A stretch of 31,550 nt of DNA from Candidatus Rifleibacteriota bacterium (GCA_015233155.1 JADFYG010000068.1:1-31550); one strand, 5' to 3'. Shown: positions 2,328-4,712, counted from the first letter of the stretch. The notes: generated by a model not told the origin, from the sequence alone. Numbers and translations are program-made.

Positions 2328-4712
2328 ATGCGCCGCCTTTTTTCTCTTCTGTTCCTGATTATATTTTGTACCGGGACGAGTGTTTTATGGGCACGAGGCG
2401 GCGGTGGCTGTCTGGCCCCGGGAACCCTCATCGATTGCCCCTCCGGAAAAGCGGCGATCGAGTCTCTCCGGCCTGGAGACACAATCCTTGCACCGGGGGG
2501 AATTCCCAAAAAGGTCCTCGGTGTAACTGAGTTTGAAGCAAAAGAAATATACGAGATAGAACACGATGTGAGGGCGACATCCGAACATCCATTTCTGGTA
2601 GCCCCCGGAATTTACCGTACAGCGGCAAGGCTTGGCAAATCATCACCATATTCCGGGAAGGTCTATAATCTCACAGTGGAGCCTCCCGGGACATTCATTG
2701 CCAACGGGCATCCGACGCATAACAAAGGCTGTTTCACCCCCGACACCAAGGTTATGCTGGAAACCGGTCTGGAGACCGCCATGTCGGCTCTTCGCCCCGG
2801 TGACAGAGTACGCGCCTTTACGATGGATGGACGGAAAGTCGGCGCAGAGATCGACAGAGTTTTCACTCTGATGGCCGAAGAGTATTTTGAAGTGGTGACG
2901 GAAAGCGGACTTCTGGTCAGGGCAACTGCCGAGCATCCATTTTATGTCGGGGATGGAACTTTCCGCACTGTCGAGACTCTTCGTCCGGGCGATTCCATTT
3001 ACTCGTTTCGTGACAACTTCGCCAGAGACAGGATAAAGACCATAAGAAGAATCAAGTCTCCCGTTCAGATTTTCAATATACAGACGGATTCACCCAATAC
3101 GTTTATTGCCGCCGGATTCGCGGTTCACAATAAGGGCGGAGGATGTTTTCCAGCGGGAACCGGCATAACGATGCCCAATGGCGATACACGAAGCATTGAA
3201 ACCCTTTCCCCGGGCGATACGATACTTGGCGGAGATGGGAAACCGACCACTGTGCGCATGGTCGCAATGACAAGGGATGAAATAATCGACGTGGAGACTT
3301 CCTGTTCGAAAACCCGAACGACGATGGAGCATCCATTTCTGAATGCACGGTATCGTTATATTGAAGTCATGGATTTTTCTCCCGGGTCTTTCCTGAGAAA
3401 ATTCGGCGGAACCGCTGAACACGTCGTTTCAGTCATACCCTCCGGGATTCGGGATCTTGTGTATGAAATTGAAGTCGACGCACCTCATTCATATATCGCA
3501 AATGGATTCATCGTTCACAACAAGGGGTCGAGCGGTTCCGGAGGTTATCACTCCTCCGGAGGTCATACCGGACCGCCGCCGACATTCTTGGAATTAATGG
3601 GCATTTTGTTTTTCGGACTGATCCTCATGCTATTAACCTTTGCCTTAGTGCTGATGGCAAAGAATCCTGACGGCAAAGGGATCGATATCATAATTCCTAT
3701 CTCGACTCTGCAGCCCAGATATAATGTTACGGAGAAACTTGTTGAAACAATCTCTCAGCGTGACCCGGAGTTCAATGTCGGTAATTTGAAATCCATTGCG
3801 GAACATGCCTTCAGGACTCTTCAAACCTGCTGGGAAGAACGTAATTATTCAGAAATGGCCCCGCTTGTATTTTCAGCGCTGCAAAAAGGTCATGAACTGC
3901 AGTTGCAATCATCGATCAGGAATCATGAGATCAACAAAATTGAAAGTTTGAGCATTGAAGGGATCTGGATCGTCCAGGTGAATCATTCGCGGGAAGCCAA
4001 ACAGCGTGAATTTTCCGTCCTTGTTCAGGCTCGTGCCAAAGATTACTTCATCGATGATAGAACATCTTCTTACATACGTGGAGACATAACAGCAGAACAG
4101 TTTCAGGAATTCTGGGTATTTCAATGGAAAGACGGGAGATATAAAGTCAGGGATATTGAGCAGACCAAAGACTCTTCGATTCTTTCCATACCTAATCGGG
4201 TTGAAGGCATGGAGGATTCGGCTGCCGGAATGTCGGAAATCAGTATTTCCGGCCAGACGGGTAAGATCACTAAAAACATTTCACGCATGAATGCTTCCGA
4301 TCAAAACTGGGACCAGAGGGAGATGAAGGAAATAGCCCGCTCCGCAGCCATAACCGTGTATATGGCCAGGGAATCCGGGGATACTTCATCGCTGGCGGAG
4401 CTGGCTACGGAAAGTTTTGTTTCCACTCTCAAGGCTGAATGCAATGAACGTTCTCGTTCGCACGAATCTGTTGAGTTCCGAAATATCTGCGTTCGCAAGG
4501 TCGATATCTGCCTGGCGCGCCCGGCAAAGGACAATGGGCCGGATGAGTTCGTGGCAAGGATCACTCTCCACGCTCAAAGAATCAAAACTTCTTCGGGAAC
4601 AGTCGTCTTTCAGGATTCGGATGTGACTGTTTTCGAAACCATGCTCCGTTTTGAGCGTAAGAATTCACCGTTCAGACTTGCTGAAATCGTCAAGAGCAGT
4701 GATCAGGTTTAG
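2328..4712 (+). CDS. Multidomain protein: signal peptide, 3 tandem Hint (Hedgehog/intein-like, BIL-type) domains, a single TM helix, and 2 Tim44-like/NTF2-like cytoplasmic domains.
   Basis: The N-terminal signal peptide is MRRLFSLLFLIIFCTGTSVLWA.

Three about 107-138 aa repeats (aa 28-134, 135-272, 273-400; nt about 2409-3527) each begin G|C(L/F)xxxT (GGCLAPGT, GCFTPDT, GGCFPAGT, compare Hedgehog GCFPGS). Each contains a TxEHPF block (the intein block-B TxxH) and ends FIANG/FIAAG/YIANG...HNKG (a terminal His-Asn).

The repeats are followed by a Gly/Ser linker, the hydrophobic helix FLELMGILFFGLILMLLTFALVLMA, and a 350 aa C-terminal region. That region has two W/F-rich segments (FQEFWVFQWKDGRYKVRDIEQ; VFETMLRFERKNSPFRLAEIV) resembling Tim44-like domains. 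Confidence 0.8.
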   Translation: MRRLFSLLFLIIFCTGTSVLWARGGGGCLAPGTLIDCPSGKAAIESLRPGDTILAPGGIPKKVLGVTEFEAKEIYEIEHDVRATSEHPFLVAPGIYRTAARLGKSSPYSGKVYNLTVEPPGTFIANGHPTHNKGCFTPDTKVMLETGLETAMSALRPGDRVRAFTMDGRKVGAEIDRVFTLMAEEYFEVVTESGLLVRATAEHPFYVGDGTFRTVETLRPGDSIYSFRDNFARDRIKTIRRIKSPVQIFNIQTDSPNTFIAAGFAVHNKGGGCFPAGTGITMPNGDTRSIETLSPGDTILGGDGKPTTVRMVAMTRDEIIDVETSCSKTRTTMEHPFLNARYRYIEVMDFSPGSFLRKFGGTAEHVVSVIPSGIRDLVYEIEVDAPHSYIANGFIVHNKGSSGSGGYHSSGGHTGPPPTFLELMGILFFGLILMLLTFALVLMAKNPDGKGIDIIIPISTLQPRYNVTEKLVETISQRDPEFNVGNLKSIAEHAFRTLQTCWEERNYSEMAPLVFSALQKGHELQLQSSIRNHEINKIESLSIEGIWIVQVNHSREAKQREFSVLVQARAKDYFIDDRTSSYIRGDITAEQFQEFWVFQWKDGRYKVRDIEQTKDSSILSIPNRVEGMEDSAAGMSEISISGQTGKITKNISRMNASDQNWDQREMKEIARSAAITVYMARESGDTSSLAELATESFVSTLKAECNERSRSHESVEFRNICVRKVDICLARPAKDNGPDEFVARITLHAQRIKTSSGTVVFQDSDVTVFETMLRFERKNSPFRLAEIVKSSDQV

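Follow-up and report, generated by a model that had tools for sequence, protein, structure and literature searches.

Tandem Hint domains between a glycine and a lysine in the predicted periplasmic tail of a DUF350-partnered family of Tim44-like bacterial membrane proteins

Introduction

Hint domains drive inteins, Hedgehog signalling and toxin release, and are widely used in protein engineering. This work concerns a gene of a Candidatus Rifleibacteriota bacterium (contig JADFYG010000068.1 of assembly GCA_015233155.1), whose predicted product, here called the Hint-Tim44 protein, carries three Hint domains in tandem ahead of one transmembrane helix and two Tim44-like domains. The whole stretch of DNA analysed, 31,550 nucleotides, is referred to as the window. 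With some reserve, we lean towards a reading in which these bacterial intein-like (BIL) Hints, sitting in the periplasmic tail of a Tim44 protein that has DUF350 as its partner, excise themselves after export and probably rejoin the tail through the amine of the Lys at position +1.

The closest described relatives of these Hints are the A-type BIL domains, which are defined by Cys1 and a terminal His-Asn without a nucleophile at +1 (PMC7664689, PMC7765530); the window Hints have this composition. With the BIL and PT-HINT domains (structure 2lwy) they share the fold, Cys1, the T..H of block B, the terminal His-Asn and the lack of Cys, Ser or Thr at +1. The family as a whole also shares with them the location in secreted, non-conserved protein regions and block F, which reads 'YN[LI]' in the family Hints. 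In inteins block F reads 'YD'. Unlike BIL domains, the family Hints are directly concatenated two to six times with only K-Gn between them, the +1 residue is always Lys and the -1 residue always Gly, and they occupy the N-terminal tail of a Tim44 membrane protein instead of preceding a toxin or a variable surface domain. Each is followed by another Hint or by the Gly tail, transmembrane helix and Tim44 domains, and there is no toxin/immunity pair as in PT-HINT release systems.

The BUBL polyprotein of Tetrahymena thermophila (BIL2, PDB 6y75/6tmm) also holds several BIL domains in one polypeptide, and BIL2 is the best structural match of the window Hints. An earlier reading of the window, made from the sequence only, had stated that Hint domains normally occur singly; in view of BUBL this was too strong. 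The chemistry of BUBL, in which a thioester is converted to a Lys-epsilon isopeptide (PMC8616854), fits the Gly(-1)/Lys(+1) flanks of the family Hints. However, BUBL is eukaryotic and cytosolic, and its BIL domains are separated by ubiquitin-like cargo, whereas the family Hints are cargo-less and are predicted to lie in the bacterial periplasm; sequence identity is about 19-20%.

Class 1 mini-inteins resemble the family Hints in blocks A, B, F and G, in Cys1 and His-Asn, in matching the NCBIfam intein models and in having host homologues free of the insert. They differ in that the family has Lys at +1 instead of Cys, Ser or Thr (in 3/3 window and 696/696 family repeats), lies in a low-complexity Gly-rich tail and not in a conserved active site, lacks a homing endonuclease, and is tandem and extracytoplasmic. 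The Hog domain of Hedgehog proteins shares the G/CF cleavage motif (the slash marks the cleaved bond), the logic of the N-S acyl shift, sequence matches and the fold. Hog lacks C-terminal Asn cleavage. The family Hints, unlike Hog, end in His-Asn, have neither a sterol-recognition region nor an N-terminal signalling cargo, and are flanked only by [R/K]Gn. The other half of the protein is related to Tim44, mL45(Mba1) and TimA (PF04280, COG4395): it has two PF04280 matches and lies on the cytoplasmic (matrix-equivalent) side beside a membrane anchor, but with two tandem Tim44 domains, and with DUF350 and LemA as partners instead of an import motor.

What is new is thus the arrangement: in the periplasmic tail of a double-Tim44 protein with DUF350 as its partner, 2-6 catalytically intact and cargo-less Hints follow directly upon one another, each framed by an invariant Gly and Lys. 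In the literature searched, no paper treated Tim44 and Hint domains together, comparable tandem arrays of Hints or inteins did not appear, and no bacterial link between DUF350 and Tim44 was reported. As far as this search reached, the Hint-Tim44 family is hitherto undescribed. The sequence-only reading had likewise failed to match the architecture to any described system. That judgement held for the literature; the architecture is nevertheless not a one-off, since databases hold hundreds of automatically named homologues.

Results

The Hint-Tim44 gene and the gene preceding it have the following layout (window coordinates, strand in brackets):

2328..4712 (+): whole Hint-Tim44 gene, 794 amino acids; signal peptide, RGGGG, three Hints, Gly/Ser tail, transmembrane helix, two Tim44 domains
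2328..2393 (+): Sec-type signal peptide, residues 1-22 (MRRLFSLLFLIIFCTGTSVLWA); hydrophobic 3-23; predicted signal peptidase I cut after A22
2394..2408 (+): R23-G-G-G-G27, predicted start of the mature protein, flanking Hint 1 on its N-terminal side; scissile/thioester bond G27-C28
2409..2723 (+): Hint 1, type A, C28 to N132; block B T84-S-E-H87; end H131-N132
2724..2729 (+): linker K133-G134, in which K133 is the +1 residue of Hint 1 and G134 the -1 residue of Hint 2
2730..3131 (+): Hint 2, type B (CF[LT]PD start), C135 to N268; block B T200-A-E-H203; end H267-N268
3132..3143 (+): linker K269-G-G-G272 between Hint 2 and Hint 3
3144..3521 (+): Hint 3, type C (CFPAGT start), C273 to N398; block B T332-M-E-H335; end H397-N398; intein_Cterm match at 378-398
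3522..3584 (+): tail next to the membrane, rich in Gly, Ser, His and Tyr, K399 to about T419 (KGSSGSGGYHSSGGHTGPPPT); predicted disordered
3585..3656 (+): single transmembrane helix, residues about 420-443, predicted N-out/C-in; Kyte-Doolittle maximum 417-447, AlphaFold helix 420-443, positive-inside bias
3699..4163 (+): Tim44-like domain 1 (NTF2-like, three helices and a curved sheet), residues about 458-612; best Pfam Tim44 stretch 472-599
4263..4691 (+): Tim44-like domain 2, residues about 646-788; second Pfam Tim44 stretch; secondary structure as in domain 1
2024..2323 (+): gene of a small two-transmembrane-helix DUF350 (YjfL-family) membrane protein; Pfam DUF350 2.9e-6, 27.8 bits against a cut-off of 26

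The DUF350 stop codon lies 4 nucleotides ahead of the Hint-Tim44 start codon. Promoter and terminator scans of positions 1700-5000 gave counts close to the shuffled expectation and were uninformative. The NCBI record of the protein carries the automatic name 'TIM44-like domain-containing protein'.

The three Hints start with GGGG-C28 (CLAPGT), G-C135 (CFTPDT) and GGG-C273 (CFPAGT), the motif T-x-E-H-P-F lies at residues 84-89, 200-205 and 332-337, and H-N-K-G at 131-134, 267-270 and 397-400. The signal peptide and the three modules with blocks A, B and G had been recognised in the sequence-only reading, and all motifs were found where it had placed them. When the repeats, each only 105-134 amino acids long, were aligned to one another, the pairwise identity was 41-42% and 24 columns were invariant, among them Cys1, T..H and HN, whose correspondence that reading had anticipated.

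Profile searches gave the same picture. Six families of the Pfam Hint clan scored above their gathering scores: Intein_splicing (7.5e-17), Hint_2 (2.6e-16), Hint (7.3e-16), Vint (5e-10), Hom_end_hint (6.3e-10) and PT-HINT (1.3e-9). The NCBIfam models intein_Cterm (8.6e-14) and intein_Nterm (3.9e-11) were also above cut-off. With Tim44, which is treated below, all four Pfam families named in the sequence-only reading (Hint, Hint_2, Intein_splicing and Tim44) were therefore matched above their gathering scores. PT-HINT reached 38.8 bits (cut-off 27.7) on Hint 2, residues 151-269. This was no higher than the scores of the other Hint profiles, which equal or beat PT-HINT on the window protein, and by this profile comparison the window Hints are a distinct subfamily. 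Among sequences in the PDB the closest match was the BIL domain of Clostridium thermocellum (2lwy, 2.2e-7, residues 135-261); the Hedgehog entries 6td6, 1at0 and 6tyy were matched as well.

An AlphaFold2 model of the full protein was built from an alignment of 17 three-Hint homologues. It had a mean predicted local distance difference test score (pLDDT) of 78 and comprised three modules rich in beta-strands, two disordered linkers (269-271 and 400-418, the latter with pLDDT <50), a helix at 420-443 and two copies of a three-helix-plus-sheet module. When the Hint modules were compared with the PDB by Foldseek, the top match was BIL2 of Tetrahymena BUBL (6y75, E = 1.3e-10), followed by the DnaB, gp41-1 and RecA mini-inteins, BIL 2lwy and Hedgehog 1at0, with target-normalised template modelling scores of 0.75-0.87. 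The expectation that a structure prediction would return the Hint fold was thus borne out, with matches to BIL, intein and Hedgehog structures. Far beyond chance, these results confirmed that the three units are Hint superfamily domains with, as modelled, the horseshoe all-beta fold.

The topology was judged from the window protein, whose presequence ends VLWA/RGGGG, and from its relatives. Among 177 family proteins, A, G or S stood at -1 of the site before RGGGG in 175 and S, A, V, L, T or G at -3 in 176, and the median presequence had 23 amino acids. These residues and this length fit the expectation for signal peptidase I, which points to export of the Hints. Throughout the family the linker ahead of the transmembrane helix has a median length of 23 amino acids and consists of Gly and Ser to 70%; the number of Lys and Arg averaged 0.8 in the 15 residues ahead of the helix vs 3.3 in the 15 residues after it. 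Taken together, signal peptide and positive-inside bias put the Tim44 domains on the cytoplasmic side and the Hints on the opposite side of the membrane. The earlier proposal of secreted Hints joined through one transmembrane helix to two cytoplasmic Tim44-like domains agrees with the signal-peptide site, the charge bias, Pfam and AlphaFold.

The region after the transmembrane helix is 350 amino acids long. It matched Pfam Tim44 in two stretches (1e-21, 78 bits against a gathering score of 29.6), whereas the NCBIfam models TimA and Tim44_TimA_adap (NF033778/NF033779) stayed far below their cut-offs, with 19.7 against 200 and, for residues 638-760, 41.7 against 80. By these scores the C-terminal half is a member of the Tim44 family (PF04280) and not a TimA. 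In Foldseek its modules matched the mitoribosomal chain 9hch_d, which we take to be mL45, a Tim44-fold protein.

In the 17-sequence alignment, several polar residues of Tim44 domain 1 were strongly kept: N-H-E-I-N, with H533, E534 and I535 invariant or almost so, as well as R584-G-D586 and F592-Q-E-F-W-T-F598. These motifs hint at a specific pocket for a ligand or partner and not a passive scaffold. Most homologues end in an acidic/aromatic tail, '…ENVDEDSSxxQLQWYYQHxRAT' (alignment columns about 897-927), which may be a docking motif; it is absent from the window protein (end 4692..4709) and from the two other Riflebacteria-type proteins of the alignment, P0007 and P0008.

More than 700 database proteins matched the whole window protein. 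The 120 best matches listed all combine Hint and Tim44, and their names are purely automatic. When one genome per species was scanned, relatives were found in 238 species. The hosts include Riflebacteria, Planctomycetota, Verrucomicrobiota, Lentisphaerae, Kiritimatiellaeota, Desulfobacterota-type 'delta proteobacteria', Nitrospirota, Elusimicrobiota, Acidobacteriota, Chloroflexota, Auribacterota and Gammaproteobacteria, the last including the cultured Legionella massiliensis LegA. The L. massiliensis homologue (862 amino acids; locus L065, 6001..8589) has three Hints and is preceded by a gene for a 91-residue DUF350 protein.

A hidden Markov model made from the repeats detected 722 Hint domains, 696 of them full length, in 202 non-identical family proteins. 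Cys was the first residue in 693/696 full-length domains, the three exceptions being N-terminally truncated gene calls, and all 696 ended in His-Asn followed by Lys. In block B, Thr was conserved to 98.9% and His to 99.9%. All residues needed for the N-S acyl shift and Asn cyclisation are thus under strict purifying selection in the family. The residue before Cys1 was always Gly, and the N-flank of the first Hint, A or G followed across the signal peptidase site by R-G-G-G-G, was found in about 95% of the proteins. The linkers between Hints consisted only of K and 1-7 Gly (KG was the commonest, 214 times, and KGGG the second, 211 times), so that there is no cargo between the Hints. The sequence-only reading had suggested that thioester formation or self-cleavage could release or attach extracellular fragments. 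As a hypothesis this chemistry is still reasonable; with no cargo, however, nothing could be released but the Hints or very short [R/K]Gn peptides.

The Hints are of position-specific types: A comes first, B (CFLPD) second and C (CFPAGT) third, and four-Hint proteins duplicate C. Identity is 43-62% within one type across proteins vs about 32% between types. The copy number ranges from 0 to 6 across relatives; 176 of 210 complete proteins have 3 or 4 Hints, and complete proteins with 2 and with 5-6 also occur. On a rough neighbour-joining tree of these 210 proteins, presence or absence of Hints switched at least 4 times and copy number many times, counts that are approximate owing to fragmentary gene calls. 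The six-Hint proteins P0002 and P0003 alternate two types (A-B-A-B-A-B), and in the three-Hint relatives P0201 and P0207 an additional segment rich in Cys separates the Gly tail from the transmembrane helix.

An exhaustive HMMER search with the region of the two Tim44 domains alone gave 663 representatives at E ≤ 1e-3, of which 83 reached E ≤ 1e-30; a word-indexed search with the same region gave only 24 matches, and the five inspected proved to be fragmentary or frameshifted gene calls from the Hint-Tim44 family. Complete Hint-less relatives (for example P0196 (…YARGGGGGGTGGGGGGGFGGGYSG…), P0190, P0191, P0206 and P0274) have a signal peptide, 'A/RGG…', a tail rich in Gly, Ser, Tyr, His and Arg, a transmembrane helix and Tim44. 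Single-Hint proteins also occur, such as P0243 (…WPRAGGGGGGGGGG-C…HN-KGGGGYHSRSS…). Lys was absent from the tails of these five Hint-less proteins, which indicates that the +1 Lys travels with the Hint and that the ancestral tail already had the Arg and the run of Gly. Hint-less P0190, which is found on contigs of 46-59 kb, and the two-Hint protein P0199 share 65% identity across the Tim44 region. A DUF350 gene lies directly upstream of Hint-less P0190 and of single-Hint P0243; none was found immediately upstream of Hint-less P0196. These comparisons are best read as showing that the Hints are a putative insertion in a pre-existing Gly-rich tail of a Tim44 membrane protein. Cyclic-peptide precursors made of R/K-Gn units were also considered and set aside, because both the Arg and the run of Gly are already part of the ancestral Hint-less tail.

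More distant proteins of about 300 amino acids have a signal peptide, an 'AQAGRY[IV]P…GGGG…H.P' tail, a transmembrane helix and a single Tim44 domain (P0240, P0241, P0245, P0246, P0251-P0255, P0264, P0266, P0271, P0273, P0275, P0276 and P0284). This group points to a wider superfamily of Tim44 membrane proteins with short tails.

In 71 of the 78 loci with enough upstream DNA, the gene directly ahead of Hint-Tim44, read from the same strand, was a DUF350 gene coding for two transmembrane helices; it often overlapped the Hint-Tim44 start codon or ended a few nucleotides from it. LemA, whose family we take to include the magnetosome protein MamQ, preceded DUF350 in 30/73 loci, the window not being one of them. 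Beyond these two there was no conserved neighbour in the loci collected, and no conserved downstream or immunity-like gene; other Hint proteins found near the gene, in a search of all these loci, were only split pieces of the Hint-Tim44 gene itself. A link with extracytoplasmic function (ECF) sigma and anti-sigma factors was rejected as not conserved, since sigma genes were present in only about 12/85 loci at varying distance and on varying strands. Membership in a defence system was likewise dismissed: PADLOC applied to the Hint-Tim44 protein and DUF350 gave only an insignificant HEase match (E = 0.0082). DUF350 has been noted in PspA/polyamine envelope operons, in a paper that names neither Tim44 nor the Hint-Tim44 family (PMC11237479).

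Discussion

The core of the Hint-Tim44 protein is best explained as a short Gly-rich periplasmic tail, one transmembrane helix and two cytoplasmic Tim44-like domains of the NTF2 fold, which would bind membrane or ligand. It would work with the co-transcribed two-helix DUF350 protein and, in many genomes, with LemA. Following Sec export, an N-S acyl shift assisted by Cys1 and the block-B Thr and His would turn each Gly-Cys1 bond into a thioester. Cyclisation of the terminal Asn, aided by the penultimate His, would then cut the C-terminus of each Hint, and all Hints would be excised. The product would be a short-tailed protein resembling the naturally Hint-less relatives. The freed Lys amine, alpha or epsilon, would then probably rejoin the flanks by direct aminolysis of the Gly-thioester; the alternative is plain cleavage. 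The Hint array could in this way serve as a single-use, condition-dependent maturation switch of the DUF350/Tim44 membrane module.

Excision is to be expected from established Hint chemistry and the intact catalytic residues. Ligation is favoured by three features of the flanks: +1 is always Lys, a position that need not be fixed in Hints that only cleave; -1 is always Gly, the best acyl donor; and the N-flank R-G4 is conserved and identical to the start of the mature Hint-less relatives, which makes sense if it is retained. There are also precedents. For the C. thermocellum BIL domain, Dassa et al. reportedly proposed in 2004 that splicing proceeds through aminolysis by the new N-terminus after Asn cyclisation. 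In BIL domains there is no nucleophile at +1 (PMC7664689), and in BUBL BIL2 the thioester yields a Lys-epsilon isopeptide (PMC8616854).

Several points weigh against this reading. Published BIL domains mostly cleave and do not splice (PMC7664689), so ligation is possibly minor. Conservation of the catalytic residues is equally expected of Hints that serve the host and of tolerated elements that remove themselves. The invariant Lys could tune Asn cyclisation instead, and the conserved Arg could reflect signal-peptide processing and not a retained N-terminus. Finally, excision alone leaves unexplained why 3-4 Hint types tied to position (A, B, C) have been retained across phyla. The long retention of three distinct types argues for a host function of the Hints, and those Hint-less relatives that keep the same partner argue that the core function of DUF350/Tim44 needs none.

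A bolder version, which we put forward only tentatively, is that the family carries out periplasmic Lys-dependent splicing, without any Cys, Ser or Thr nucleophile, in which 2-6 Hints are excised serially and leave a Lys/Gly tail, possibly isopeptide-branched, or that activated glycines are passed to outside amines as in BUBL. If true, this would be a new class of Hint chemistry in bacteria of more than 10 phyla, a single-use maturation or conjugation device coupled to the DUF350/LemA module.

It is also conceivable, though we think it doubtful, that the Hints are only shed. They would be cut at one or both ends without ligation, at a rate set by periplasmic redox, pH, metals or nucleophiles, and the irreversible loss of the ectodomain would alter the state of the Tim44/DUF350/LemA module like an environmental sensor or fuse. 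The mainly cleaved products of BIL domains (PMC7664689), the placement of the Hints in the compartment that samples the environment, and the ties of the DUF350 and LemA families to membrane and envelope functions (for DUF350, PMC11237479) are in line with such a fuse, as is the habitat of many hosts, which judged from taxon names are anaerobes of sulfidic or reduced environments. However, shedding leaves the invariant +1 Lys unexplained, as well as an R-G4 N-flank that is conserved and then discarded. A conserved signalling output is lacking as well (the ECF sigma association is weak and variable), and the existence of Hint-less relatives also speaks against it.

An improbable alternative is a platform that dispenses thioesters in the manner of Hedgehog or BUBL. 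An external nucleophile would take the Gly-thioester, so that the upstream [R/K]Gn peptide or Hints become attached to an acceptor, which could be a lipid head group, an amine of the cell wall or a polyamine, or a Lys of a partner protein; each polypeptide would provide 2-6 single-use activated glycines. BUBL BIL2, the nearest structure, conjugates its N-flank to lysines of other proteins (PMC8616854), DUF350 is repeatedly tied to operons of polyamine metabolism (PMC11237479), and the G/CF junction is like the Hedgehog site. The constant -1 Gly would be the least hindered acyl donor, and the varying number of units of the same logic recalls polyprotein and polyubiquitin arrays. Against this stand the lack of an acceptor-recognition module such as a sterol-recognition region, the absence of a conserved candidate acceptor gene nearby in the collected loci, and the cost of a modification that passes on only 2-8 residues. 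Moreover, the Hint-less relatives with the same partner gene indicate that the core system works without thioesters.

Selfish or neutral elements are a further candidate: intein-like Hints may have colonised a permissive low-complexity tail, duplicated there and persisted by clean self-removal without benefit to the host. The Hint-less forms with the same partner gene and the labile copy number, 0 to 6, agree with this. Parasitic inteins show strict conservation of splicing residues, as these Hints do. We nevertheless give this account a low probability. There is no homing endonuclease (the PADLOC HEase match, 0.0082, was insignificant and the Hints have 105-134 amino acids), types A, B and C are kept across phyla, which speaks for ancient stable retention and not turnover, and Hint-bearing forms dominate, with 3 or 4 Hints in 176/210 complete proteins. 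By our reasoning, useless inserts should also be erased through bacterial deletion bias and through the repeated Gly codons on either side.

That the Hints are catalytically silent beta-domains which make up an ectodomain for structure or binding, or that they release a polymorphic toxin as PT-HINT modules, is very improbable and already largely refuted by profiles, gene context and residue conservation: some homologue records are named 'polymorphic toxin-type HINT domain-containing protein' and PT-HINT is among the Pfam matches, but the catalytic residues are intact in 693-696/696 domains, the Hints are followed by a transmembrane helix and cytoplasmic Tim44 and not by a toxin, no immunity-like gene is conserved downstream, and PADLOC gave no match.

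With its intact, cargo-less tandem Hints and the invariant Gly(-1)/Lys(+1) pair, the family would be a natural test bed for nucleophile-free (amine-based) splicing and conjugation outside the cytoplasm, and compact new ligation tools might be derived from it. The family also defines a widespread membrane module, DUF350 plus Gly-tail, transmembrane helix and two Tim44 domains, often with LemA, and offers a handle on the function of bacterial Tim44-like proteins. The cultured host L. massiliensis LegA and the natural variants with 0 to 6 Hints make it experimentally tractable.

Other genes near the module

Upstream of DUF350, at 692..1828 (+), the window codes for a radical SAM and SPASM protein resembling anaerobic sulfatase-maturases, whose position next to the module is not conserved across the other loci. 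The convergent neighbours on the other side are a protein with two Lcl_C domains at 4773..5972 (-) (1.3e-19), a zf-HC2 anti-sigma factor at 6195..6722 (-) and an ECF sigma factor at 6694..7374 (-). Two unrelated loci (L001, 7562..8548 (-); L003/L004, 1..310 (+)) have a membrane protease gene of the NfeD1b_N/Peptidase_S49 type no more than about 10 kb from the module, which may be coincidence.

Two further genes of the window recall vault proteins, a curious pairing on one contig. An 867-residue protein encoded at 23325..25928 (-) matched Pfam MVP_shoulder (2.8e-29) and, weakly, the Vault_3 repeat; bacterial MVP homologues are uncommon. On the same contig, at 7581..9974 (+), a secreted-looking protein of 797 amino acids combines VIT (4.9e-24) and VWA (3e-20) in the way seen at the N-termini of vault PARP and inter-alpha-trypsin inhibitor.

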